The notes below the pieces were generated by a model. The model saw only the letters and a program-made list of their open reading frames with translations, made no database searches and was not told the DNA's origin. A DNA stretch of 49,231 nucleotides from an uncultured Candidatus Saccharibacteria bacterium. GTDB taxonomy: Bacteria; Patescibacteriota; Minisyncoccia; 1-14-0-10-42-19. Positions 9,108 to 49,117 of this stretch are shown here, one piece after another. Both the position numbers and the translations under genes were made by a program. The stretch lies in NCBI GenBank assembly GCA_964362625.1, contig CAYIFA010000002.1, forward strand, positions 1 to 49,231. Direction: 5' to 3'. How positions within the stretch are numbered: the first letter of the stretch is position 1; every line of letters starts with the position of its first letter.

Positions 9108-10268
9108 TTATCCGAAATAAGGCACACGTTTTTGCTTCACGCATTCATAGGCGAAAACATACATTCCGGCTGACCAGGATTGGTAGGGGTTGGAGCCGCC
9201 GATGATTTTTCCGGTGCGGCCGTCGAGCCATTCATAAAAACCGTAATCTTTAACCGGCGCGTTTTTTTTAACGAGCTTGTTGGCTTTGGCGAGCAACCCT
9301 AGTTCACTCTCCGCTTTTTTAAGTTGCCCGGTTTTAACCAACGCCGCCACATAAAATCCTCCGAGAAACGGCCAGATACCTCCATTCAAATAATGATAAG
9401 GTTCGCGCGCTTCGGCATCTTCGAAATAGTCCTTCCACTCTTTGCTCCCACGTTTTATCGGCGGATAAATCGCCTTGCAGGGATAGGGCCGGTTTATTTT
9501 TTCTTTTTCGATGTAGCGCAGAATGGAGGCCGAAATTTTAGGCGTTGCGAGCCCCGAAACAATTGCCATCAAATTTCCGAACGTGTCAAACCAATGTTCT
9601 TCTTCGCGGTATTTGTTATGCGTTTTCCAGATCCACGGCAGGTAATGGCCGTGTTTGGAGTCGTAGAGCGAAAGATATTTTTCAACTTCGCCGTTTATAA
9701 CGCGTTTAATTTTGCCTGCCTTTTTTTTCTTTCCTAAAAAATTAAGCGCGGCAAAATAAAGCGCTTCGGTTGACAGCACCCGGCCGTATTTGTGCGGGAA
9801 GGCGTCCTGCCAGTCCATAGTCGGCTGTTGGACTATTAATTTATCTTCGTTTGGGTCCTGGTAGCCAAGCCAAGCAACCGCGCGCGCAATATTTTTTTCA
9901 TGTTTTTTTTGGAGCTTTTTATTTTTGTAGGCAACGGCGTATACAAAGTGCCCGATTATATACCATAGCGTGGAATCAATCGAGTTAAATGTAATTTTGC
10001 TTTTTCGCTCAATGTTGTAATCGCCAACCGCGTTAGGGATTTGTCCGTGTTCGGATTGGTTTTTTGACAGGACCCCCAAACTTTTTCGGAATGGCTTTTC
10101 AAATTTATTTCCAATTAAAGACGCGCCAAGAGAGGCAACCATGCTATCTCTGGCCCAAGTCGCTTCGTAGCCGCCGGGTAAGCCGGATGCGAAAAATCCG
10201 GCAGGCCTTGCCGCCGTTTCCAGTACTTTTATGGCCGCCAAATATGCGCCGTCAGCTATTTTTTTCAT
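9108..10268 (-). CDS. (alpha/alpha)6-barrel glycoside hydrolase, amylo-alpha-1,6-glucosidase (GDE_C) / neutral-invertase-like
   Basis: ATWARDSMVASLGA, YHYLNGGIWPFLGGFYVAALVKTG and NPYQSWSAGMYVFAYE fit the pattern of six-hairpin glycosidases of the GDE_C type. Confidence 0.65.
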   Translation of the reverse strand: MKKIADGAYLAAIKVLETAARPAGFFASGLPGGYEATWARDSMVASLGASLIGNKFEKPFRKSLGVLSKNQSEHGQIPNAVGDYNIERKSKITFNSIDSTLWYIIGHFVYAVAYKNKKLQKKHEKNIARAVAWLGYQDPNEDKLIVQQPTMDWQDAFPHKYGRVLSTEALYFAALNFLGKKKKAGKIKRVINGEVEKYLSLYDSKHGHYLPWIWKTHNKYREEEHWFDTFGNLMAIVSGLATPKISASILRYIEKEKINRPYPCKAIYPPIKRGSKEWKDYFEDAEAREPYHYLNGGIWPFLGGFYVAALVKTGQLKKAESELGLLAKANKLVKKNAPVKDYGFYEWLDGRTGKIIGGSNPYQSWSAGMYVFAYECVKQKRVPYFG

Positions 10269-16490: not shown

Positions 16491-16715
16491 ATGACTACCC
16501 AAGTTCTTGTTGAAAAACTTGATAAAGAGGTTGGAGAATTGCGAATGGACATCAATGAAATGAAGCGTTTTCTTTTCCAGCCGCTTAAGGATCCAGAAGG
16601 GGAATACAGAGAATCATTCATCCGAAAGATGTTCAAGCGGTCGTTAAGTTCGAGGCCGTTTACTAGGTTTGCAGACAAAGAATCTTTTTTAAGGCATGTC
16701 CGAAGCAAGAAATGA
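16491..16715 (+). CDS. Putative antitoxin of the adjacent RelE/ParE toxin
   Basis: A 74-aa ORF overlaps the toxin start by 20 nt, the classic TA gene coupling. No family was recognised from the sequence. Confidence 0.5.
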   Translation: MTTQVLVEKLDKEVGELRMDINEMKRFLFQPLKDPEGEYRESFIRKMFKRSLSSRPFTRFADKESFLRHVRSKK

Positions 16716-16986
16716 TGTCATATACGATAAGCATTTTTTGCATGACATCCGTAAACTCCCGGCAGAGTGCCAAGAAAAGCTAGCCGAACTCATAGATTTA
16801 TTGCAAAACGATCCATTTGATCCGCGTTTTCATACTAAGCCCTTAGGGCCGCCGCTTCAAGGGATTTTTTCTTTTCGAATTACCCGCGATTATCGTGTTG
16901 GATTTAAATTTTTGTCAGACCACGTTATCCAGCTGATCGCCGCCGATAATCGTGATAAAATTTACAAAAAATTAAGCCGAAAATAA
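16696..16986 (+). CDS. RelE/ParE-family type II toxin
   Basis: DKHFLHDIRKLPAECQEKLAELIDLLQNDPFDPRFHTKPLGPPLQGIFSFRITRDYRVGFKF...IQLIAADNRDKIY fits the RelE/ParE/YafQ-like pattern and size. Confidence 0.75.
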   Translation: MSEARNDVIYDKHFLHDIRKLPAECQEKLAELIDLLQNDPFDPRFHTKPLGPPLQGIFSFRITRDYRVGFKFLSDHVIQLIAADNRDKIYKKLSRK

Positions 16987-16989
16987 GAC

Positions 16990-17592
16990 ATGGAGAAAGA
17001 TCTGTGGACGCTCAAAATTTATACGCCCGACGGATTTGTTAAAGAAGATATTTTTAGCGGCATAAAAGTTCTGGACGTCGGGTGCGGACAGCGAAAATTG
17101 CTCGGTTCCGTTGGTATGGATATAGTTAAGAATTCATCGGCCGATATTGTCCACGACATGAATAAATCTCCGTGGCCGTTTTCGGATGGGGGGTTTGATT
17201 TGGTTTTCATGAACCACGCGCTTGAGCACGCCGATGATGTTTTGCAGATTCTCGGTGAAGCTTGGCGCGTAACCAAAAGCGGCGGCCGCCTAGTTATCCA
17301 AGTTCCGCATTTCCGGGCGGTTGACGCTTTTGTTGATCCTACCCACCAGCACTTTTTTGCTTCGTATTCAATGGATTATTTTTTGGAGGGAACAAAATTG
17401 TCAGATTACAATTATGTGAATTTTAAATTCCGCAAACTCGGCTTTTGGTACGGCTGGCCGCATCCATCTAAAAATCCGGTTCGCCAGATGATAAAAACCT
17501 TTATCCACCGCTGTCCAATTTTTTATGATCAATATCTTTCTTTACTTCTTCCTACCGAATGCGTTACCTGGGAGCTCGAAGTTGTAAAATAG
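16990..17592 (+). CDS. Class I SAM-dependent methyltransferase
   Basis: VLDVGCGQRKL (motif I), FDLVFMNHALEHADD and SGGRLVIQVPH. Confidence 0.8.
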   Translation: MEKDLWTLKIYTPDGFVKEDIFSGIKVLDVGCGQRKLLGSVGMDIVKNSSADIVHDMNKSPWPFSDGGFDLVFMNHALEHADDVLQILGEAWRVTKSGGRLVIQVPHFRAVDAFVDPTHQHFFASYSMDYFLEGTKLSDYNYVNFKFRKLGFWYGWPHPSKNPVRQMIKTFIHRCPIFYDQYLSLLLPTECVTWELEVVK

Positions 17593-17636
17593 AGATTCAG
17601 TAATAAATTCGGTGCGGGGCAAACCGGCATTGATAA

Positions 17637-19520
17637 CTAGACTTCTATCACCACTGGCAACACCATTGGTCTTCGCTCTGTCTTCGAAAACAAAAATTGG
17701 CCGAGTTTGTCTCTAAGGTTATCTTTAACCCACTCCCAATTTACCGGGTGCATGTTTGAGGTGGCATCCTCAATGATGCGTTTGGTAACTTGGCGCGCCT
17801 GGAACAATAATTCCTTTGACTCGCGAAGATAAACAAATCCGCGCGAGATAATGTCCGGGGACCCGCGCACTTTTCCGGTTTGCGAATCAACCACCGCGAT
17901 AACCACGAATATTCCGTCTCCGGCCAGCATTTGCCGGTCGCGTAAAACCACTTCTTGCACGTCGCCGACGCCCAAGCCGTCAACCATGACGTAATTCGCC
18001 GGAACAAATTCGTTGGTCTTGGCCACCCGGTCTCGGCTTGCCTCAACGATTTGGCCATTGTCGGCAATGACTATATTCTCGCGCTTCATTCCGGCATCTA
18101 GCGCAACTTTCGCGTGTATTTTCAGAAATGAGTGATTTCCTTCAATTGGCATTAAATATTTTGGCCGAACAGTTTGAATCAATAATTTAAGATCTTCTTG
18201 CTTAGCGTGTCCTCCGGCATGAATATCAAGCATGCGATAATTAATGACATCCGCGCCGTCGCGATAGAGTTTGTCCGTTAGGTATTGAACCTGCCGCTCA
18301 TTGCCGGGGATCACCGAAGAGGAAAATACTACGGTGTCGCCGGATTCGATTTTCAATACTTTGTGACGCTTGGAAACAATTCTCATCAGCACCGCGTTTT
18401 CTTCGCCTTGGGCGCCGGTAACCAGGATTATAATTTTATTTTTTGGAAAGTCCTTTACTTCGGTCGGGTCGATCATTATTGCCGGGTTTATTTTCATATA
18501 ACCTAGGCGGCTCGCGATTTCTATATTGGTTCGCATACTGCGTCCGTCAACTGCCACCCGTTTGTCGTGTTTTTCGGCCAGTTGGATGATTTCATTCAAG
18601 CGGCCAAGAAGGGAAGCGAATGTTCCGATGATCAGCCGGCCCGGGGCATTTTTTATGATATCTTCCATCTCATGCTGGATTTCGACTTCGGAAAATTGGC
18701 GTCCCGGTTCTTTGGCATTGGTGCTGTCGGACATCAGCAGCAATACACCGTCATCGCCGAGCCGTTTTAGTTTGTCCAGTTCGGTTACCCCGGCAATAGA
18801 TGAACGAATGTCAATTTTAAAGTCGCCGGTGTGGGCGAGCGTACCAATGGGAGTATGCGCGACTACTCCGAGGGATCCCGGAATGTTGTGCGACACGCCA
18901 AAAAATTCTATCTGAAAAGCGCCGAGATCCAGCTTGGTGTCATTGGAAACTTCCTGGAGGTTCAGCTCTCCATTTGATCCAGTCCTGAATTCCTCTTGGC
19001 GCTTAGCTATTATCGCAAGGGTCAGGTCAGTCCCAAAGATCGGTATTTGGTGCCCTAATTCGCGCATGAGATAAGGGATTCCGCCGATATGATCCATGTG
19101 CGCGTGAGTTATTAATATGCCGCGGATTTTTCTTTTTTTGGGGATGAGCGATTTTACGTTAGGAATAATATAGTCAATGCCCGGCATATTATCCTCCGGG
19201 AATTGCAGGCCCATATCAATTATTATTATGTCGCCATTAAACTGCGAGCCGGGGTCAATGTATTCGAGATACATCATGTTTCGGCCTACTTCTTCGAGGC
19301 CCCCTAATGGCGTTACTTTGACCCGCGCATCCCGTCCGCTGCGAGGGACGTTTAGTTTTTGCACACCCCGCGCTTTTGTTATATTGAATAATTCCGCTGT
19401 CGGCGCGTTAATCCGTCCCGAAGTTTTTCGGAATTCGGAGTGGCGGATCTGCCTTGAAGGCGGTCCAAAAGATTTTCTCGGCCGAACTGGCCGCTTTGAT
19501 CCTGAATTTGGTGTCATCAT
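17637..19520 (-). CDS. rnj: Ribonuclease J (metallo-beta-lactamase / beta-CASP) with a basic N-terminal extension
   Basis: VKVTPLGGLEEVGRNMMYLEY, ITHAHMDHIGGIPYL (HxHxDH) and the beta-CASP region. The first roughly 67 aa are rich in R, K and P. Confidence 0.9.
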   Translation of the reverse strand: MMTPNSGSKRPVRPRKSFGPPSRQIRHSEFRKTSGRINAPTAELFNITKARGVQKLNVPRSGRDARVKVTPLGGLEEVGRNMMYLEYIDPGSQFNGDIIIIDMGLQFPEDNMPGIDYIIPNVKSLIPKKRKIRGILITHAHMDHIGGIPYLMRELGHQIPIFGTDLTLAIIAKRQEEFRTGSNGELNLQEVSNDTKLDLGAFQIEFFGVSHNIPGSLGVVAHTPIGTLAHTGDFKIDIRSSIAGVTELDKLKRLGDDGVLLLMSDSTNAKEPGRQFSEVEIQHEMEDIIKNAPGRLIIGTFASLLGRLNEIIQLAEKHDKRVAVDGRSMRTNIEIASRLGYMKINPAIMIDPTEVKDFPKNKIIILVTGAQGEENAVLMRIVSKRHKVLKIESGDTVVFSSSVIPGNERQVQYLTDKLYRDGADVINYRMLDIHAGGHAKQEDLKLLIQTVRPKYLMPIEGNHSFLKIHAKVALDAGMKRENIVIADNGQIVEASRDRVAKTNEFVPANYVMVDGLGVGDVQEVVLRDRQMLAGDGIFVVIAVVDSQTGKVRGSPDIISRGFVYLRESKELLFQARQVTKRIIEDATSNMHPVNWEWVKDNLRDKLGQFLFSKTERRPMVLPVVIEV

Positions 19521-19604
19521 GAGTTTGGTGAAAAATTAATTAAATAATAATATTTTAGGCGATAGGCATTTTTACGGTGGCGTTTGCTATAGAATAGTTT
19601 AATT

Positions 19605-22508
19605 TTACGTTTTTACTAAATCCGGTCGGACTTTTTTCAATTGGTCAAGCGCAAGTCTGCCTAGTGCAAAAGTGAGGTAATTTCTAAACTCTGCGCTTGC
19701 GTCTTGCGCGCCGTCGGTGTTGTGATGAGTTTTCTCGTGAACATAGACATCAGCCGCACGGGTAAAATCTGCTAAGGTTTCTCGTAAGAGATGAATACTT
19801 GTTCTATCAGAGTAACCAGCCGCTACTTTTTGATCCACAGACTTGCGCTTGTACACTCGTATATCGGATTGGCGATTGTTCGGTAGATATTCGTCAATCG
19901 CAGTCAAAACTTCTATCAGCGCTTTTTCTTCTGCCGTCAATTCTTCATCGGGGATATGCTCAACATCAGTCATTTCTTGCAAACGCGATTCATAAGTTGG
20001 CAATCCCAATCTCTGTAAAACTCGATAGACAGAAGATGGGAAAGATACAAGTTCCAAACCAACATGCTTGTTCTGTTGCATAGCGTCGTAGTCCTCGGAG
20101 CGCATATCGCGAATTGCCGTGTCTTTGCCGAAAACCTCCTCAAAAATCTTTTTCCAGTTTTTTGCGTCTTTCGGGCTAAAGTCCATAGAAAATTCTACTT
20201 TATCTTTTCCGCCACCTTTTTGTGCTTCAAGATTTGCCTTGAACAGAAAACTTTTTATAACTTCGGGGTTTTCGGTTTGCGACCAAATTTGAGCAATAGC
20301 AGGAGAAAGTTCTTGTTGATCAACAAAACTCCTATCCCGATTTTTAATTTCCAATCTCGGCAAATGGTAAGTAAACAGCAAATTATGGTCGCCGGGAATC
20401 AGTAATTCGCGGACATATACCATCCCGCCCTCAAGCGAAAGCACATCTCCGTTTGGCGTTCGCTCAATCGGCTTAGTCTTTTCTATCGCCAAAACTTTTT
20501 TGTTGATCTGACGAAATTCTTGCAGTAATTCCGGTGTTAAGTTTGAAAATGTTGTTGAACTGCTCTGATAAAGTCCTTTATCGTCGTCTATCTCCTGTTT
20601 TTTGACAGTGTGGATTACGTCAAAAACAAGCTGGTCAATTTCATTTCCATCAATTTCTTGACGCAAAGCGCGAGGTTTAGCCGACCAATTTTGAGAGCGC
20701 AAAGTCATGTCCATGCTTTTGCGAAGCGAAGCTACGCAAAGCATTTTCAAACCCTCGCCAAATTTTCCGGTGCTTTCAGTTGCTTCTTTTGTGGAGTAGA
20801 AGAAGCCAAGCAGTCGCGAATCATAACCGCGTCCATCATCATAAATTTTTACTGATTCTATGTCTTCGTCTTTTGCGTCCGGTAATTCTGAAAATGAGTG
20901 CCACTTGCTATCTTTGGCTTTGAAACGTAAACCGATATTTGAACCACCGGAGTCGCGCGGTAAATGATTTTGCACTGCGTCAAGCAAAATTCGTTCTTCA
21001 TTCCAAATATCCTTTCCATACTCAAGCGTTAGAGAGGTCGGAATTGTTTCGTCCCAAAAATCAGGAGTCGCTTCGCGGTCAGTTTTGATACCGGCTCGCA
21101 AAAGCAGACTGGACATGCCAGACGGCAGTTTAACTTTGGTAAGCGGCTTATCTTTGAAGGCATCTGGTATTTTGAAGCCGGTATCCAAAACTGCGTCTTT
21201 CCCAAATGCTTCATAAAATCCTTCAATCCAAACGCTCGGATGTTCGGCTTCGAGATTGTAGTACGAACTTTCAACAGCATCCGGTTCCAGAATACTTTTT
21301 TGAAGCATTGTTTTGACAAGGCGTTTATCAGAAATTTCTCTAACAATCTGCGCTATTCTTCGTTCCGGTTCTTCTGAAACAATTGTATTCCGGTCTCGGT
21401 TTGTTTCTACGTCTTCAAAGTTGTAAGAAAATAAAGTTTTCTTTCCGGTTACATAAATACCTTTTACGAATAAACCGCCGGATTCGCGATCAACGATTTC
21501 TCCGGTACTTCCCACAAAAGCGGGACGATAATTTTCGCGCAAAGCCAAAACTTTCTTTTCGATCTGCATTAACTCATTAACAAATGACTCGGTTGGGTTG
21601 TGAAATGTGGTGCGAGAACCAATCATCGGCTCACCGGTCAAATGTTCAACTCGGAATGATAACTGCTGAACGGTTTGCTCTTTTTGATGGTGGGTATCAA
21701 AAATCTTTACTTCTTTTGGTGTTGGCTTTGCGCGCCAGTCTTGTGACTCCATTTCCGGCTCTAATCCCTCGCGTAAAGCGGCGGCGGCCATCATTTTCAT
21801 ACCTTCTCCAAATTGTCCGCGAGATTCTTTTTCGCCCGCCTTTGTGGAATACAAGAGAGCCAGATTTTTAACATCAAAACCAACGCCATCATCAGCAAAG
21901 CGCACGGCTTCTATTTCATCTTTCTTTTGTTTTGCTTCTGCGAGGGAAACCCATTTGCCACCGACCAAACATCTAACCCAGACATGTTCGCCCTTGGAAT
22001 CGGATGGCAAGTGGTTTTGCACTCCATCGAGACATATTCTCTCAACGCCCCAGTTTTTCTTTTCATATTCAAGGGTAAGCGAGGTATCCAATGTTTCTTC
22101 GCCTACTACTTCGGAGGGTCGTTCTTGATTCAGAATTTCTTCTTTCGAAAAACCGCTTTCCTGCTCAAGCTGAAAATCTACATGGCGGAGACCACGCAGC
22201 GAAGCTATTGTTTTCTCGGCAAGGAGGTATGAGCGGGCAGAAATATTTTCAATGGGCTTTTGGGATTTTCTTCGGCTGGGCAAAAAACGATACGCGCTTT
22301 CAAGATAACTCTTCCACTTATCCACCTTCGATGCTTCAACATCTCGTTCTGGCTGATAGCGTTCCACCAACTGCAATACACGAGTTAAACGAACACGGTC
22401 TTGCTCATCAAGAGTTTTCTGCTTCAAAAATTCGTTAATTTCCGTCCGCGAAGATTCGAGCGTCTTTTTTGTTTCTGTAAATTGCGCCTCAAAATGTGGC
22501 TTTTCCAT
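19605..22508 (-). CDS. Large uncharacterised protein: two tandem GHKL/MORC-like ATPase-like modules plus a C-terminal HExxH motif
   Basis: An internal duplication is visible by eye: TSLTLEYEKKNWGVERICLDGVQNHLPSDS / TSLTLEYGKDIWNEERILLDAVQNHLPRDS, FADDGVGFD / IYDDGRGYD, and YSTKAGEKESRGQFGEGMKM / YSTKEATESTGKFGEGLKM. HEKTH is encoded at 19725-19739. Confidence 0.6.
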   Translation of the reverse strand: MEKPHFEAQFTETKKTLESSRTEINEFLKQKTLDEQDRVRLTRVLQLVERYQPERDVEASKVDKWKSYLESAYRFLPSRRKSQKPIENISARSYLLAEKTIASLRGLRHVDFQLEQESGFSKEEILNQERPSEVVGEETLDTSLTLEYEKKNWGVERICLDGVQNHLPSDSKGEHVWVRCLVGGKWVSLAEAKQKKDEIEAVRFADDGVGFDVKNLALLYSTKAGEKESRGQFGEGMKMMAAAALREGLEPEMESQDWRAKPTPKEVKIFDTHHQKEQTVQQLSFRVEHLTGEPMIGSRTTFHNPTESFVNELMQIEKKVLALRENYRPAFVGSTGEIVDRESGGLFVKGIYVTGKKTLFSYNFEDVETNRDRNTIVSEEPERRIAQIVREISDKRLVKTMLQKSILEPDAVESSYYNLEAEHPSVWIEGFYEAFGKDAVLDTGFKIPDAFKDKPLTKVKLPSGMSSLLLRAGIKTDREATPDFWDETIPTSLTLEYGKDIWNEERILLDAVQNHLPRDSGGSNIGLRFKAKDSKWHSFSELPDAKDEDIESVKIYDDGRGYDSRLLGFFYSTKEATESTGKFGEGLKMLCVASLRKSMDMTLRSQNWSAKPRALRQEIDGNEIDQLVFDVIHTVKKQEIDDDKGLYQSSSTTFSNLTPELLQEFRQINKKVLAIEKTKPIERTPNGDVLSLEGGMVYVRELLIPGDHNLLFTYHLPRLEIKNRDRSFVDQQELSPAIAQIWSQTENPEVIKSFLFKANLEAQKGGGKDKVEFSMDFSPKDAKNWKKIFEEVFGKDTAIRDMRSEDYDAMQQNKHVGLELVSFPSSVYRVLQRLGLPTYESRLQEMTDVEHIPDEELTAEEKALIEVLTAIDEYLPNNRQSDIRVYKRKSVDQKVAAGYSDRTSIHLLRETLADFTRAADVYVHEKTHHNTDGAQDASAEFRNYLTFALGRLALDQLKKVRPDLVKT

Positions 22509-22532
22509 AGATTAAAGTTTGGTAGTTATTTA

Positions 22533-22616
22533 TGCTCGGGGCGGGAGTTGAACCCGCAAGCCCTTGCGGGCATTAGCTCCTGAAGCTAACGTGTTTGCCA
22601 GTTTCACCACCCGAGC
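22533..22616 (-). tRNA. tRNA-Leu (anticodon CAG), type II with a long variable arm, no encoded CCA
   Basis: Manual cloverleaf: acceptor GCTCGGG/CCCGAGC, D stem GTG/CAC with a GG-containing loop, and anticodon stem TTAGC/GCTAA with loop TTCAGGA. The variable arm is CCC-GCAA-GGG and the T arm is GCGGG-TTCAACT-CCCGC. Confidence 0.9.
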
Positions 22617-24362
22617 TTAATTTGCAAAATATTTAAGGACCTTTTTTGTTTTAAGGTGCCAGGAGTGGACTCTGGCGAATCTCTCCGGAGGCACCGTGAT
22701 ATTTTCAGTTTCGAATCCCTTTAATCCGTCAGTCGTGGCATAAAGATATGACGGGGAATAGAGAAAGACAGCCGGAACGTCATCGGCGATCTCTTTTTGA
22801 AATTCAATATATTTTTGTTTTCGCTCATCTTCATTTATTGTTTTGCGCGCGGTCTCGAGTAGTTTGTCTACGGTGGAATTAGCGTAAAGCGCGATATTCA
22901 ATCCGGGGTCGTTCATCTGTGAAGAGTGCCAGAATGCGAATGGGTCCGGATCACGGCCGACCACCTCTCCGAATAAAAGTGCGTCATATTCGCGCGGACG
23001 AATTACTTGCTGGTTTAAATCCGTGAATTCGAAGAGCTTGATTGTAATATTAACACCGAGTTCCGCCCACATTGATTTTAAGAGCTCGCCAGTTTCGGCC
23101 AAGTCCGGAGTATTGGCGGTAGACAACGTGAATGAAAGCGTTTTTGTTTCTTTCTTTGTTTTTTTTGTAAGAATTCCGGTTTCCGGATCTTTGACCCATC
23201 CGGCGCTTTTTAGCGTTGAATTCGCTCGGTCAATCGGCCGAGCCGCGTCATCGTTTACGAGTTTGCTGTCAGCATCTTCAGAAAAATCTCCGAATGTGCC
23301 AGGCGGAATAGGCGAATTGGCTATTTCGGCATGCCCGGCGAATACTTCGTTTACAATTCTTTTCTTATCAACGGCTAGATCAAGCGCCAAGCGGATGTTT
23401 TTTTCAGTGAAAATCGGCGCGCGGTTTTGGTTGAAAAAAACCCCAAAGATCCTTGGCAGAGTAAGCTCGTGAATTTCGATGTTGTTGCCGCCAATTTCTC
23501 CCAAGTCTTTCGCTACCGCAACGCTAATGCCGTCGATTTCTCTTTTTTGGAAATCCGCTTTAAGTATTTGTTCGGTGGGATAAAACTTGATTTCAAAGGT
23601 CGAAATATTCGGTTCTCCGCCGGCGTATTTATCAAAGGACCTAAGAACAAATTTTGTGATTATGCCGGATGAGTTCGTAGGCGTGCTGGCTATTTGATAT
23701 GGTCCGCTCCCGATTGGTTTGTGGTTGAAAGCTGAAAAGGTGAATTGTTCCGGCAGGATTCCAGACCAAATGTGCTTGGGTATGATGCCGAGCGTCGTAT
23801 TTTCGATAAACGGCGCATACGGATTCGCCAAGGTCAATTTAACGGTGCGCTCATCCGGAGAATCAATTGTTACTCCTTCCCAGTTGGCGCGTACCGGACT
23901 TTTTAGCGCCGGGTTCTTCGCGGTTTCGATGGTAAATACGATGTCTGCTGATGTTAAGGGTTGGCCATCGTGCCAGGTAAGATTATCTTTCAGGTGGAAA
24001 GTATAAGAAAGTCCGTCGTCCGAAATTTCAAAACTTTCCGCGAGATCCGGTACGAGCCCGCCATGGCCGTCAGCGCGCATTAGCCCGGAATAGATGAGCG
24101 TTGTCGTATCACGATCAGCATCAGATACTGCAAGCAATGGATTTACGAAACTCGGCGACCCCACTATTCCTTCGCGCCATTTGCCGCCATGGGCCGGAAC
24201 TACAACCGAATATTTATTATTTATAGAAATAAAAAATCCAATTACTCCCGCGAGTAAAAGAGTAAATGACGCTAAAAAAATTAAGCGCTCGGATTTTGAG
24301 AAATCACGGCTGGCTGCGCGAAATTGTTTTAGAGGCGGAAAATTAAAACGCCAAGAAAGCAT
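22617..24362 (-). CDS. Family-5 extracellular solute-binding protein (peptide/oligosaccharide-type) with an N-terminal membrane anchor
   Basis: The N-terminal TM is LIFLASFTLLLAGVIGFFISI. SBP_bac_5-like blocks include YTFHLKDNLTWHDGQPLTSADIVFT and RLALDLAVDKKRIVNEVF. No permease or ATPase genes are nearby. Confidence 0.8.
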   Translation of the reverse strand: MLSWRFNFPPLKQFRAASRDFSKSERLIFLASFTLLLAGVIGFFISINNKYSVVVPAHGGKWREGIVGSPSFVNPLLAVSDADRDTTTLIYSGLMRADGHGGLVPDLAESFEISDDGLSYTFHLKDNLTWHDGQPLTSADIVFTIETAKNPALKSPVRANWEGVTIDSPDERTVKLTLANPYAPFIENTTLGIIPKHIWSGILPEQFTFSAFNHKPIGSGPYQIASTPTNSSGIITKFVLRSFDKYAGGEPNISTFEIKFYPTEQILKADFQKREIDGISVAVAKDLGEIGGNNIEIHELTLPRIFGVFFNQNRAPIFTEKNIRLALDLAVDKKRIVNEVFAGHAEIANSPIPPGTFGDFSEDADSKLVNDDAARPIDRANSTLKSAGWVKDPETGILTKKTKKETKTLSFTLSTANTPDLAETGELLKSMWAELGVNITIKLFEFTDLNQQVIRPREYDALLFGEVVGRDPDPFAFWHSSQMNDPGLNIALYANSTVDKLLETARKTINEDERKQKYIEFQKEIADDVPAVFLYSPSYLYATTDGLKGFETENITVPPERFARVHSWHLKTKKVLKYFAN

Positions 24363-24387
24363 TAAGATAAAAATTCTTTTTATACGC

Positions 24388-24636
24388 TTAGATAACCAGA
24401 TTCAATATTGCGGTGATAAAAAACAAGGATGCCAAAACTATGGTTGAAGCAAACAATATTCGTTCAAATCCGCGTTTGGTTTGATAGATATTTCCTTCAC
24501 CGCCAAAAGCGGCGCCGAGACCGGTGCCTTTTTGCTGGAGAAGTATAGCGGCTACGAGCAGAATTGCTGCCAGCATCTGTACGTAGGGCAAGAGTACCTT
24601 TAAAACCTGCATTTTTTCTATTGTAGCATACCGCAT
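24388..24636 (-). CDS. secG: Preprotein translocase subunit SecG
   Basis: 82 aa with two TM segments and LLQQKGTGLGAAFGG. Confidence 0.85.
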   Translation of the reverse strand: MRYATIEKMQVLKVLLPYVQMLAAILLVAAILLQQKGTGLGAAFGGEGNIYQTKRGFERILFASTIVLASLFFITAILNLVI

Positions 24637-24648
24637 TTAGGAGTCAAG

Positions 24649-25956
24649 TTGTTGTATACTGTTCGTATGGGAAAACCCAAAAAATCAGTACATTTTCTGG
24701 GGGTTGCAGGTATCGGCGTAAGCGGACTGGCTTTGTGGTATAAAAACTTGGGCTGGGTTGTCACCGGATCTGATATAGCAGTATCCCCGGTAACCGAGAT
24801 GCTCAACCGGTTTGGTATCAAACCGGAAATCACCGCCGATCAATTTAAGCGCATTCCTAAAGACGCGGATTTAATAATTCATACACAGGCCATTGATCGC
24901 TCAAAAATCACTACCACACCCGGTGTGGTAGTGAAGTCTTATCCAGAAGCGCTGGGTGAACTCACCAAGGATAAATTTACCGTCGCGGTTTGCGGAACGC
25001 ACGGCAAAAGCACCACTGCCGCGATGGCCGGACTTTTAATGCTGGACGCCGGGTTAAGTCCGACGGTGCTGGTCGGCACTATGCTGCGGGAGTTTTCCAA
25101 TTCCAATTTTCACTTCGGCAGTTCCAGGTATTTAGTGATTGAGGCCGATGAATTTCGCGGAGCGTTTTTGAATTATTATCCGGACATCGCGATTTGGACC
25201 AATGTTGATAACGATCATATGGATTACTTTAAAAATCTGGACGATGCTGTCGGGCACTTTAACGCTTTTATAAAACACATCCCGGATAACGGATTTATTA
25301 TCGCAAATCGCGACGACAAAAATATAAAAAAAGTTTTGAGCGCCCAAAAAAATGTGATTTTTTATTCTTTACGCGATAAGGAGTCGGGGCGTATCCGGCG
25401 CCTGCTGAAGATTCCGGGCGAACATAATGTTGCCAACGCGCTGGCCGTGCTTAAATTAGCGCGAGTGCTCCATGTGCCGGACGAAGCGGCCTATGGCTCT
25501 ATCGCGAACTACCGCGGTTCTTGGCGAAGATTTGAATTAAAAGGCGAACTTAACGGCGCGAAAGTTTATGACGATTACGCCCACCATCCGACCGAAATTA
25601 AAGCGACGCTGGCTGCTGCTCGCGCCAAATTCAAAGGCAAAAATATTTGGTGCGTTTTTCAACCGCATCAATATGAGCGCTTAAAATTTTTATTCAACGA
25701 TTTTTCGCGGGCGTTTAAGGGGGCTGATCGGGCGTTAATTCTGCCGGTCTACGGCGTAGCCGGCCGAGAAGGTGGGAATAACGGCGTTGATTCAAAGAAG
25801 CTCGCCCGGGCAATAAAAAAGCAAAGCAAAAACGCCGACTATATGGATGGCATGAAAGACGCCGCGCTATATTTGAAAAAAAATGTTAATGAAAAAGATA
25901 TCGTAATAATAATGGGCGCCGGCAATATTTGGCAGATTTTTGAATTTCTATTTTAG
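24649..25956 (+). CDS. murC: UDP-N-acetylmuramate--L-alanine ligase
   Basis: HFLGVAGIGVSGLALWYKNLGWVVTGSD, GTHGKSTTAAM and DDYAHHPTEI. The start is either TTG at 24649 (AGGAG 5 nt upstream) or ATG at 24667. Confidence 0.9.
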   Translation: MLYTVRMGKPKKSVHFLGVAGIGVSGLALWYKNLGWVVTGSDIAVSPVTEMLNRFGIKPEITADQFKRIPKDADLIIHTQAIDRSKITTTPGVVVKSYPEALGELTKDKFTVAVCGTHGKSTTAAMAGLLMLDAGLSPTVLVGTMLREFSNSNFHFGSSRYLVIEADEFRGAFLNYYPDIAIWTNVDNDHMDYFKNLDDAVGHFNAFIKHIPDNGFIIANRDDKNIKKVLSAQKNVIFYSLRDKESGRIRRLLKIPGEHNVANALAVLKLARVLHVPDEAAYGSIANYRGSWRRFELKGELNGAKVYDDYAHHPTEIKATLAAARAKFKGKNIWCVFQPHQYERLKFLFNDFSRAFKGADRALILPVYGVAGREGGNNGVDSKKLARAIKKQSKNADYMDGMKDAALYLKKNVNEKDIVIIMGAGNIWQIFEFLF

Positions 25957-47651: not shown

Positions 47652-48205
47652 TATTTAAAGAATTAGATTTAAAAGGCGCTTTTGAAATACAGCTCGAATT
47701 CAAAGAAGACGTGCGAGGGTTTTTTATGCGGACGTACGACAATGAATTTTTTAAGAAACATGGCCTGGACCGAACCTGGGTACAGGAGAGTGAATCTTTC
47801 AGCCGCCTAAAGGGAACTATTCGCGGTTTGCATTTGCAATTGCCGCCGCATACCGAAGCAAAAATCGTGCGAGTGCTAACCGGTGAAGTTTTTTTTGCAG
47901 TGGTCGATTTAAGAAAGGACTCGCCGACTTTCGCCAAATGGGCAAGCGTAATCGTGTCTGAAGAAAACAAGAAAATGATTTATGTGCCGGAGGGTTTGGC
48001 CTTAGGGATGATGGCCTTAACCGATAATTGCCGGCTTCATTATAAAATCGACCGCGTTCATTCGCCGGAAAGCGCTTGGACCATCAAATGGGATGATTCG
48101 GATCTCGCGATTTCGTGGCCGCTTGCTAAGCCAGCGGCCATCTCCGAAAAAGACGCTAACGCCAAAAGTTTCAAGGATTTTTTGTATTCGGTATCAACAC
48201 TATAA
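47648..48205 (+). CDS. RmlC-like cupin, NDP-4-keto-6-deoxyhexose 3,5-epimerase family
   Basis: VRGFFMRTY, QESESFSRLKGTIRGLHLQ, AKIVRVLTGEVFFAVVDLRKDSPTF, YVPEGLALGM, HYKIDRVHSPE and IKWDDSDLAISWP. It overlaps the C-methyltransferase gene by 4 nt. Confidence 0.8.
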   Translation: MIFKELDLKGAFEIQLEFKEDVRGFFMRTYDNEFFKKHGLDRTWVQESESFSRLKGTIRGLHLQLPPHTEAKIVRVLTGEVFFAVVDLRKDSPTFAKWASVIVSEENKKMIYVPEGLALGMMALTDNCRLHYKIDRVHSPESAWTIKWDDSDLAISWPLAKPAAISEKDANAKSFKDFLYSVSTL

Positions 48206-49117
48206 GACGAGCCTGGTGAATAATTGAATCCATAACGCTGGCTTCGTCGACCACTCAAGAATTTCCATGATAGACGTCATATACGAATTAGCACGGAAAT
48301 TCGTGAGATGTCGAGTGCGTTCTTCACCAAGATTGAATACACGTTTCTTCCGAGAAAAGTATCTCTCAATCTCGGTTCGTTTCTTGTAAAGATCGGGATT
48401 CGCGGTTCGTTCCGCTCCGCGCAGGCGTCTATTTCTCTCGTTCCCATACGGAATGTTCCGCAAGGGAATCGCAATGTTGACTTTCTACCATTTTAAGAAA
48501 ACATCGTGCACAAAGTATTCGCTGTCATACCCTTTGTCGGCTGAAACTCCGGTGACGTTCCACCAACGAGGCGCTGCGCGTATCAACTGCGATCCCCATA
48601 CAATATCTGCTCGTGCTCCCGATGTTGCGTATTGTAAAAGAGGTAGTCGGGTATAGTAATCAATGATTTGATGAAGCTTGAAGCCGTTTTTCTCCTTGTA
48701 TCCGGAGTATGCCGAACCACGCTCATCATGCTTTGAATATGTTTCAACAAATGAAGAATCAAGAAGCAGAAGAAGCGGATTAGCGTTCTCGGCAATAGCG
48801 CGCGTAAGTGTTTTGAATATCCGGGAAAACCACATTGTGGCTATCGGTCGCTTTCTGAATTTAATGAAGGTTGAATAATCAATACCGCTTGCGCTTTCCA
48901 GATCACGGTAACTACAGCGCATCACTTGTTTGTACATGAGCCACCGAAACATGACTGTTTTGTCATATCCCTTTCTTCCTTTTGATGATGGTTTCAAGAA
49001 ACGAGTAAGCAGAACGTTCACTATTGGATGGTTGATCCATTGAAAACGAGCAAAAACCGGGATATGATGATACATACAAAGAAGATGCTTAATGGTAAAT
49101 GTTGTCGGTAACTCCAT
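48200..49117 (-). pseudogene. IS5/IS4-type DDE transposase interrupted by one in-frame TAG
   Basis: ORFs 48485..49117 and 48200..48463 are in the same frame (both start coordinates are 1 mod 3). The only stop between them is TAG (plus-strand cta, 48485-48487). The joined read is ...SADKGYDSEYFVHDVFLKW*KVNIAIPLRNIPYGNE...YKKRTEIERYFSRKKRVF, a contiguous DDE_Tnp_1 pattern. Confidence 0.75.

Follow-up and report, generated by a model that had tools for sequence, protein, structure and literature searches.

We describe here a gene carried on a 49,231-nucleotide stretch of DNA (contig CAYIFA010000002.1, hereafter the window) from an uncultured Candidatus Saccharibacteria bacterium, whose 967-residue product is predicted to join two tandem GHKL-type ATPase modules to a C-terminal zincin-type peptidase domain. 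The coding sequence (CDS) occupies positions 19605..22508 of the (-) strand, begins with ATG and ends in a stop codon at 19605-19607. A tRNA-Leu(CAG) gene (22533..22616, (-) strand; identified by ARAGORN and scored at 56.5 bits by Rfam, the scan of which returned the tRNA alone) lies upstream on the same strand, 24 nucleotides (nt) from the ATG, and is itself abutted by the stop codon of a gene for an SBP_bac_5 solute-binding protein (22617-24362). On the other side, the RNase J gene rnj (17637-19520) starts 84 nt past the stop of the 967-residue open reading frame (ORF). An initial annotation of this DNA, made from the letters of the sequence, had reported the ORF, a series of motif strings, a HExxH at 19725-19739, the 24-nt gap to the tRNA and flanking housekeeping genes unrelated to the ORF, all of which were confirmed here.

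The domains are supported by a full-length AlphaFold2 model (mean predicted local distance difference test score, pLDDT, 83.8; predicted template-modelling score, pTM, 0.54), a stand-alone model of the C-terminal region and alignments within the family; all domain coordinates below refer to the (-) strand. Residues 1-133 (22110..22508) form an N-terminal helical domain with four long helices (residues 4-28, 35-51, 61-73 and 89-116), in agreement with the helical segment proposed initially, and are kept only in the close Patescibacteria clade, while archaeal and Clostridial relatives match the query from about residue 125-140 onwards. Module 1 (residues 134-480; 21069..22109) begins with a GHKL ATP-binding domain, to which is joined a beta/alpha domain peculiar to the family that terminates in an invariant NRDR; module 2 (residues 481-838; 19995..21068) is a second copy of this unit of about 345 residues. 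When the two halves of the protein (residues 1-480 and 481-967) were aligned to one another by BLASTP, residues 137-476 matched 486-838 at 37% identity over 362 positions (E=1e-55), and the paired blocks SQDWRAKP/SQNWSAKP, NRDRN/NRDRS and FYEAFGKDAVL/FEEVFGKDTAI are all present, which bears out the earlier proposal that the duplication extends beyond the ATP site to the whole module. Finally, residues 839-967 (19608..19994) make up the C-terminal minimal zincin domain, with a predicted zinc site H924-E925-x-x-H928 ... D936 (19701..19739) assigned from the family alignment, its HEKTH motif spanning residues 924-928 (nt 19725-19739).

Residue conservation was assessed on an alignment of 39 family sequences with a mean column identity of 34%. 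All four GHKL motifs are invariant or near-invariant in both modules. In module 1 these are the N box or motif I ERICLDGVQNHLPSDS (residues 156-171; 21996..22043, (-) strand), with D161-x3-N165; the DxGxG box FADDGVGFD (residues 204-212), with D206xG208xG210; the S-x-K...G-x-F-G-x-G-x-K lid segment YSTKAGEKESRGQFGEGMKM (residues 220-239), with G231xxG234xG236xK238; and G297-S298-T300. Their module 2 counterparts are ERILLDAVQNHLPRDS (residues 505-520; 20949..20996, (-) strand), with D510-x3-N514; IYDDGRGYD (residues 555-563), with D557xG559xG561; YSTKEATESTGKFGEGLKM (residues 571-589), with G581xxG584xG586xK588; and S650-T652. The invariant positions of module 1 are D161, N165, D170, D206, G208, G210, G231, G234, E235, G236, K238, G297, S298, K349, Y362, D372 and R373, and those of module 2 are N514, D519, G559, G561, G581, G584, E585, G586, S650, T652, Y714, D725 and R726, with D510 and D557 conserved in at least 90% of the sequences. 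In both modules Asp takes the place of the usual Glu as the acidic residue of motif I, four positions ahead of the N-box Asn.

Profile and structure comparisons converge on the same fold. Although Pfam HATPase_c matches the window protein below threshold (residues 186-247; 23.5 bits against a cut-off of 26.4), across the alignment it matches 33 of the 39 members and HATPase_c_3 matches 26, some of them above the cut-off. Foldseek comparison of the full-length model to the PDB placed GHKL structures in the five best-ranked positions and in 8 of the top 15, the best being an Hsp90 N-terminal domain (probability 0.99, E=1.7e-3), and the GHKL matches included Hsp90-N, BCK, GRP94, MutL-N, HtpG-N and histidine kinases, the MutL-N alignment being poor (template-modelling score, TM, 0.32). 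The Bergerat-fold (GHKL) assignment of the initial annotation is thus sound at the level of the superfamily. The second half of each module (residues ~305-480 in module 1, where K349, Y362, D372 and R373 are invariant) models in module 1 as four short strands followed by helices and matched no known domain; apart from a chance match given below, the Pfam scan returned HATPase_c and HATPase_c_3 alone and detected neither an S5 transducer nor Hsp90 middle or C-terminal domains. No significant match came from searching PDB sequences with the protein itself, with a full-length profile or with a profile of the C-terminal region. Two further candidates were discarded: a sub-threshold Cmr2_hel_dom1 match at residues 783-820, found in 2 of the 39 members and taken as chance, and precomputed PF25856 (MPN635_N) matches, which are marked faint, were not reproduced by hmmscan and pointed to no informative literature.

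Both modules thus share with the GHKL superfamily (Hsp90/HtpG, MutL, GyrB/TopoVI-B, histidine kinases and MORC) the N-box Asn and the DxGxG, GxxGxG and G-S/T elements, but the window protein differs in scoring below the Pfam cut-off, in carrying Asp for Glu at the general-base position and in having two modules per chain, and the post-ATPase domain of the family gave no match to a known transducer, middle or S5 domain. A closer affinity to MORC/paraMORC ATPases had been proposed initially from the lid, and an S-x-K ... G-Q-F/Y-G-x-G-x-K lid segment is indeed common to both; the affinity itself was not supported beyond one non-significant match, in which MORC2 was the best PDB sequence for the module profile at the lid region (E=1, 11 bits), with no S5 domain detected and no MORC structure within the Foldseek PDB top 50. 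Prokaryotic MORCs have been described as mobile conflict-system genes (Iyer et al. 2008, PMC2292703), whereas the present family has no detected S5 domain and no link to restriction-modification, its effector being a peptidase in the same chain. Tandem repetition of GHKL-type modules in a single polypeptide is also seen in the chaperone sacsin, which has three Hsp90-like modules in a row (PMC3710099), but the family has none of the DnaJ, HEPN and UBL domains, is prokaryotic or viral and ends in a protease. A sacsin affinity was set aside as too weak, the NCBIfam model NF047352 reaching 18.7 bits against a cut-off of 50 and matching 3 of the 39 modules at E<=0.01. Proteins of the phage T4 rIIA type combine a phage-encoded GHKL ATPase with a variable C-terminal domain and are thought to act in phage-host conflict; rIIA-type architecture is documented as an N-terminal GHKL ATPase followed by such a variable domain (PMC7824862), but rIIA has no zincin and no sequence relationship to the family was seen, no search aimed at one having been made.

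Modelled alone, the C-terminal domain (residues 839-967) is predicted with high confidence (pLDDT 95.4, pTM 0.87) as a compact fold in which, in domain numbering, strands 44-49, 60-62 and 66-70 precede the motif helix (77-92) and a following helix (101-122). In the 39-sequence alignment three residues, E925, H928 and D936, never vary, and H924 is kept in at least 90% of the sequences. The family consensus is HExxHxxTGAxD; counted from the second His, the Asp of most members is at +7 and that of the window protein at +8. Across the family at large, (H/E)ExxH is kept in 184 of the 187 zincin domains detected. The layout of three strands, HExxH helix and following helix is shared with SprT/Wss1/SPRTN and with the M48 peptidases HtpX and BepA, but the third ligand is His in SprT/Wss1 and Glu in M48 and Asp in the family, the Foldseek E-values range from 0.01 to 2, and the window protein has no membrane segments, unlike HtpX. 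HtpX 3cqb (TM 0.50), BepA, M32 carboxypeptidases and YbeY led the PDB matches of the domain, none of them significant. In BFVD the top match was a 437-residue phage protein (E=5e-5), probably a member of the same family, and further matches were to SprT-like proteins (0.9-0.99), metalloproteases and an IrrE-like protein, with probabilities of 0.6-0.99.

The HExxHxxTGxxD signature, with Asp at +7 from the second His, in the loop behind the active-site helix, is shared with NleC, AIP56 and GtgA (MEROPS M85), and a minimal zincin core is present in both groups. The zinc motif aligns with AIP56 HEIVHHVTGSSD, a match over 37 residues that is not significant (E=0.73), and no NleC or GtgA structure appeared among the 42 Foldseek PDB matches of the domain. 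To our knowledge the NleC/AIP56/GtgA proteins are secreted effectors acting on eukaryotic NF-kB, none of which carries an ATPase. GtgA binds its zinc through the HExxH and through Asp-193 in the loop that comes next (PMC6166728). In the family alignment, no conserved third His of the SprT/WLM type was found after the HExxH. Because of the Asp at HExxH+7, as in GtgA, and the missing third His, we classify the domain as a minimal zincin of the Asp type and not as an SprT/WLM member in the strict sense; the SprT/WLM-like zincin envisaged initially therefore stands as regards the minimal fold and falls as regards the third His.

The protein, at first taken for an orphan, belongs to a large family. 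A word-indexed search returned 101 homologues (23-89% identity), those that match over the full length ranging from 89% to about 30%, and an exhaustive HMMER search returned 742 representative clusters at E<=1e-3, 140 of them at E<=1e-30. In species-representative genomes, homologues occur under the Patescibacteria metagenome-assembled genome (MAG) labels Paceibacterota, Nomurabacteria, Parcubacteria, Kerfeldbacteria and Woesebacteria, in the DPANN archaeal groups Micrarchaeota, Woesearchaeota and Anstonellaceae, and in several gut Clostridia. Among the comparison loci (numbered with the prefix L), some MAG labels are at odds with the Parcubacteria-type content of the contig, namely those of L010, L015 and L028 ('uncultured Gammaproteobacteria'), L011 ('Saccharibacteria') and L026 ('Methanosarcinales'). 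Such labels may reflect mis-binning or loose automated naming, and the taxonomic range is to be read with care. Phages carry relatives as well, with a match to phrog_6077 (E=5e-34) and 17 phage records found by tblastn.

When 233 family proteins were scored with a module hidden Markov model (HMM) and a zincin HMM, 126 had two modules and a zincin and 55 had one module and a zincin (~540 residues in cells). The Moorella phage MTATph1 protein (446 residues) and the Exiguobacterium phage vB_EalM-132 protein (437 residues) each comprise one module and HExxH...D, align best with module 2 plus the C-terminal domain, and are encoded among helicase, SSB, dUTPase, dNMP-kinase, ligase and exonuclease genes. 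These architectures show the evolutionary and ancestral unit to be one module plus a zincin, of about 540 residues in cells and 437-446 residues in phages. The N box is degenerate in some phage proteins, with LQEMFD in Moorella (L035 5863-7203) and LQGFLD in Vibrio (L037 4827-5930) in place of QN, and the Vibrio and Luteibacter phage proteins (357-367 residues) have no zincin domain. At the other end of the size range, a clade of relatives of 1400-1676 residues (P0206, P0219, P0224 and P0227) retains the GHKL module(s) but contains no HExxH zincin, its members ending in about 100 residues of Transglut_core (transglutaminase-like, papain-fold), and P0152 has an additional Peptidase_M3 domain (residues 1670-1993). 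The joining of GHKL module(s) to a peptidase is a recurring theme in which the peptidase part is interchangeable. Our literature search on GHKL proteins with zincin or transglutaminase domains and on Patescibacteria Hsp90-like proteins turned up no account of the family, and no Pfam, NCBIfam or PADLOC family was found for the module-module-zincin architecture; the family is undescribed though built from known folds, a GHKL ATPase coupled to an effector domain.

Comparison with the closest relatives of the window indicates that the gene is variably present at its site. By its RNase J, the window organism stands nearest to Candidatus Niyogibacteria (74% identity). Three contigs (L039, L040 and L041) encode RNase J proteins 86%, 86% and 74% identical to it and keep the block UvrC-MurC-SecG-SBP-tRNA-Leu(CAG)-rnj; in all three the interval from tRNA-Leu to rnj is about 40 nt, the gene is missing from this site, and tRNA-Leu(CAG), the left border of the insertion, directly precedes rnj. 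At the DNA level L040 383-5263 aligns with window 27334-22544 and L040 5302-7196 with window 19531-17638, so that an interval of 39 nt faces one of about 3012 nt in the window and an insertion segment of about 3.0 kb (19532..22532, (-) strand), absent from the closest relatives, is delimited, consisting of the CDS and flanks of about 24 nt and about 70 nt. The gene is therefore variably present in the tRNA-Leu to rnj interval, for which a comparison of related genomes had been suggested initially. Neither of the outcomes named initially as refuting the annotation occurred: both folds were recovered, and the empty site in L039-L041 sets the gene apart from a syntenic core gene.

Copies elsewhere point in the same direction. 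On a Nomurabacteria contig (L013) a copy 80% identical to the window protein accompanies rnj, SBP and SecG genes whose products are 43%, 42% and 45% identical to those of the window, but lies on the other side of SecG and in the opposite orientation, and the loci of copies 71-89% identical (L001, L006, L008, L010 and L011) have nothing in common with the window outside the CDS. On these alignments the gene is accessory, has been transferred horizontally and sits as a one-gene insert on the 3' side of tRNA-Leu. It is no classic tRNA-integrated element, a possibility ruled out by the lack of an integrase in the insert and of att-like direct or inverted repeats in window 16500-25000.

Several further features of these contigs were recorded. 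Synteny with the closest relatives stops exactly at the rnj stop codon, and the region below 17638 (a toxin-like ORF, a methyltransferase and glycosyltransferases) is variable too; the toxin-like 96-residue ORF (16696-16986, (+) strand) has weak, sub-threshold matches to RelE-type toxins of the YoeB/HigB/Gp49 kind. At window 48200-49117 on the (-) strand, adjacent ORFs of 87 and 210 residues both match DDE_Tnp_1, which suggests a split insertion-sequence transposase, probably degraded. On L013 the family member is followed, about 680 nt downstream, by an ORF for a LAGLIDADG homing endonuclease (9586-10077, (+) strand; Pfam E=2e-10).

A position behind a tRNA gene is not confined to the window. 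A same-strand tRNA lies within 700 nt upstream of the gene in 6 of 13 independent close-clade loci (binomial P ~2e-8, with tRNA density in the same loci as background), and the tRNA varies by locus: Leu-CAG in the window (24 nt upstream), Val-CAC in L014 (4445-4519; 31 nt), Val-GAC in L008 (9831-9904; ~97 nt), Thr-GGT in L011 (5757-5832; 168 nt), Ser-GGA in L028 (5478-5567; ~400 nt) and Ser-CGA in L010 (2499-2589; ~660 nt). Such flanks may be safe, well-transcribed landing sites for a promoter-less cassette. In L021 and L022 a tRNA-Ser is found about 300-400 nt downstream of the gene, on the opposite strand.

Over the 32 loci whose neighbourhoods were compared, no neighbour family recurred in Patescibacteria, and isolated GmrSD and BrnT genes occur near some copies. 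In the Clostridia clade the gene is always directly followed by one for a helical protein of 98-167 residues with a conserved YWC/FFC segment (L017 8870-9223, L018 3501-3845, L019 4099-4602, L020 8874-9299, L030 7903-8199 and L031 7961-8257); its L019 copy has no Pfam match and its L017 copy no PHROG match, and it may be a partner, adaptor or inhibitor. A mobile-element context was ruled out in Clostridia, whose copies are surrounded by housekeeping genes, namely those for AdhE, UvrB, RF-1 and acetate kinase. In L006 (9800-9997) and L007 (50-247), where the copies share 88% identity with the window protein, a 65-residue HTH_3 gene of the XRE type lies 4 nt upstream, a stretch homologous to this upstream region is also present in L010, and in L043 (3501-3650) an RHH_1 gene overlaps the start of a single-module relative that adjoins Bro-N and RNase_H_2 genes; the window copy has neither a helix-turn-helix (HTH) nor a ribbon-helix-helix (RHH) partner. 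Two single-module relatives (L004 4967-17623 and L042 3360-11207) are part of a shared same-strand operon of overlapping genes that includes a Ser/Thr protein kinase of about 600 residues and a protein of about 980 residues with no Pfam match, with NTP_transf_2 upstream on the opposite strand. This operon looks like a multi-gene system.

GHKL ATPases work through the ATP-driven pairing of two ATP-binding domains. We tentatively propose that the window protein is a cytoplasmic, ATP-regulated zinc metalloprotease whose modules pair within the chain and which serves inter-genomic conflict, a reading that we put forward ahead of the others while holding it to be about as open to error as to confirmation, and slightly more so. 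ATP would drive the pairing of two GHKL domains, with single-module relatives pairing as homodimers and the two modules of the window protein presumably pairing inside one chain; closure would then capture a substrate or activate the one protease domain, and cleavage of a protein substrate would follow. The outcome might be defence or abortive infection in cells and counter-measures in phages. A role in conflict is suggested by the patchy, mobile distribution of the family and by its phage-encoded copies, and we lean towards it because of this mobility, the phage homologues and the swapping of peptidase domains; a housekeeping role is less likely. A more specific form of the proposal, which we regard as rather doubtful, is a single-protein immune or addiction module in which the fused GHKL domains would sense a foreign molecule and fire an NleC/SprT-like protease, the gene travelling in Patescibacteria and DPANN as a promoter-less tRNA-flank cassette that uses tRNA transcription, and phages deploying single-module counter-weapons.

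Several observations weigh against the proposed conflict protease. A search of PADLOC-DB 2.0 returned 0 families at E<=10, and the 32 loci revealed no conserved defence-gene neighbourhood, the flanks being mostly housekeeping genes. The structural matches are weak by E-value: the best PDB match of the GHKL part reaches 1.7e-3 and that of the zincin 0.48. With a pTM of 0.54 the full-length model does not fix how the two modules lie to one another, so that pairing within the chain is purely conjectural, and the Asp that replaces Glu before the N-box Asn makes hydrolysis, as opposed to binding, uncertain. Loss in the relatives, rather than gain in the window lineage, could also explain the absence of the gene from their tRNA-Leu flanks. 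Finally, the ATPase and protease activities are predictions for every member of the family.

The same data can be read in other ways. HtpX and BepA are M48 quality-control proteases, and the best structural matches are to these for the zincin and to Hsp90, GRP94 and HtpG N-domains for the ATPase; along with the weak NCBIfam sacsin match, the mostly housekeeping flanks and the concentration of the family in small-genome lineages, they would fit a role in protein quality control, where Hsp90/sacsin-like modules hold misfolded proteins and pass them to an HtpX-like zincin, as a compact chaperone-protease for the reduced genomes of Patescibacteria, DPANN and small Clostridia. We judge this unlikely, given that the gene is lacking in the closest kin of the window organism, has been transferred between distant lineages and has phage copies in replication and nucleotide-metabolism regions, that no Hsp90 middle or C-terminal domain was detected by Pfam, and that the sacsin model stays at 18.7 bits of the 50 needed and reaches only 3 of 39 modules. 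Another alternative is a protease bound to DNA. MORC, MutL and topoisomerase ATPases clamp DNA, and ImmA/IrrE cut XRE partners, so that a GHKL pair might clamp DNA while an SprT-like zincin clears stuck or cross-linked proteins or, as ImmA/IrrE do, cuts a repressor; the best matches in the viral structure library include SprT-like proteins, MORC2 is the best (though non-significant) PDB sequence match of the ATP-lid region, the phage copies sit among the helicase, SSB, ligase, exonuclease, dUTPase and dNMP-kinase genes mentioned above, and an HTH_3 gene precedes the copies in L006 and L007 (the stretch recurring in L010) and an RHH gene that in L043. A DNA-bound protease of this kind likewise appears improbable to us, as no DNA-binding or S5 transducer domain was detected, no MORC structure ranks in the Foldseek top 50, no HTH gene accompanies the window copy, the Asp-type zinc site is unlike that of SprT/Wss1, and no DNA-repair genes recur beside the cellular copies.

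Finally, the protein might be without catalytic activity and serve, as a scaffold or pseudo-enzyme, a structural or regulatory role, its ATP and HExxH motifs being kept for folding or ligand binding only. The replacement of the usual catalytic Glu by Asp before the N-box Asn, the degenerate phage N boxes (QE in Moorella and QG in Vibrio for QN) and the 3 of 187 zincin domains that have no HExxH would be in keeping with this. We nevertheless consider it very improbable, since the motifs of both modules and the full zinc triad are invariant or near-invariant at about 30% overall identity, and since different peptidase folds take the zincin's place in other members, an argument that selection acts on the peptidase chemistry.

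The known uses of GHKL ATPases lie in driving DNA clamps, chaperones and kinases. A conserved GHKL-protease fusion with swappable peptidase domains (zincin, transglutaminase-like and M3), as predicted here, would be a new use of the fold, and would represent a new kind of ATP-dependent protease, of predicted function and unrelated to the AAA+ proteases. The tandem modules would furthermore amount to a natural single-chain version of the GHKL dimer, which could ease the study of dimerisation mechanics. The ultra-small Patescibacteria and the DPANN archaea remain poorly understood, their immune genes included. The present gene clearly moves between these lineages and sits at tRNA flanks, which makes it a practical marker of gene flow as well as a candidate for a role in defence.

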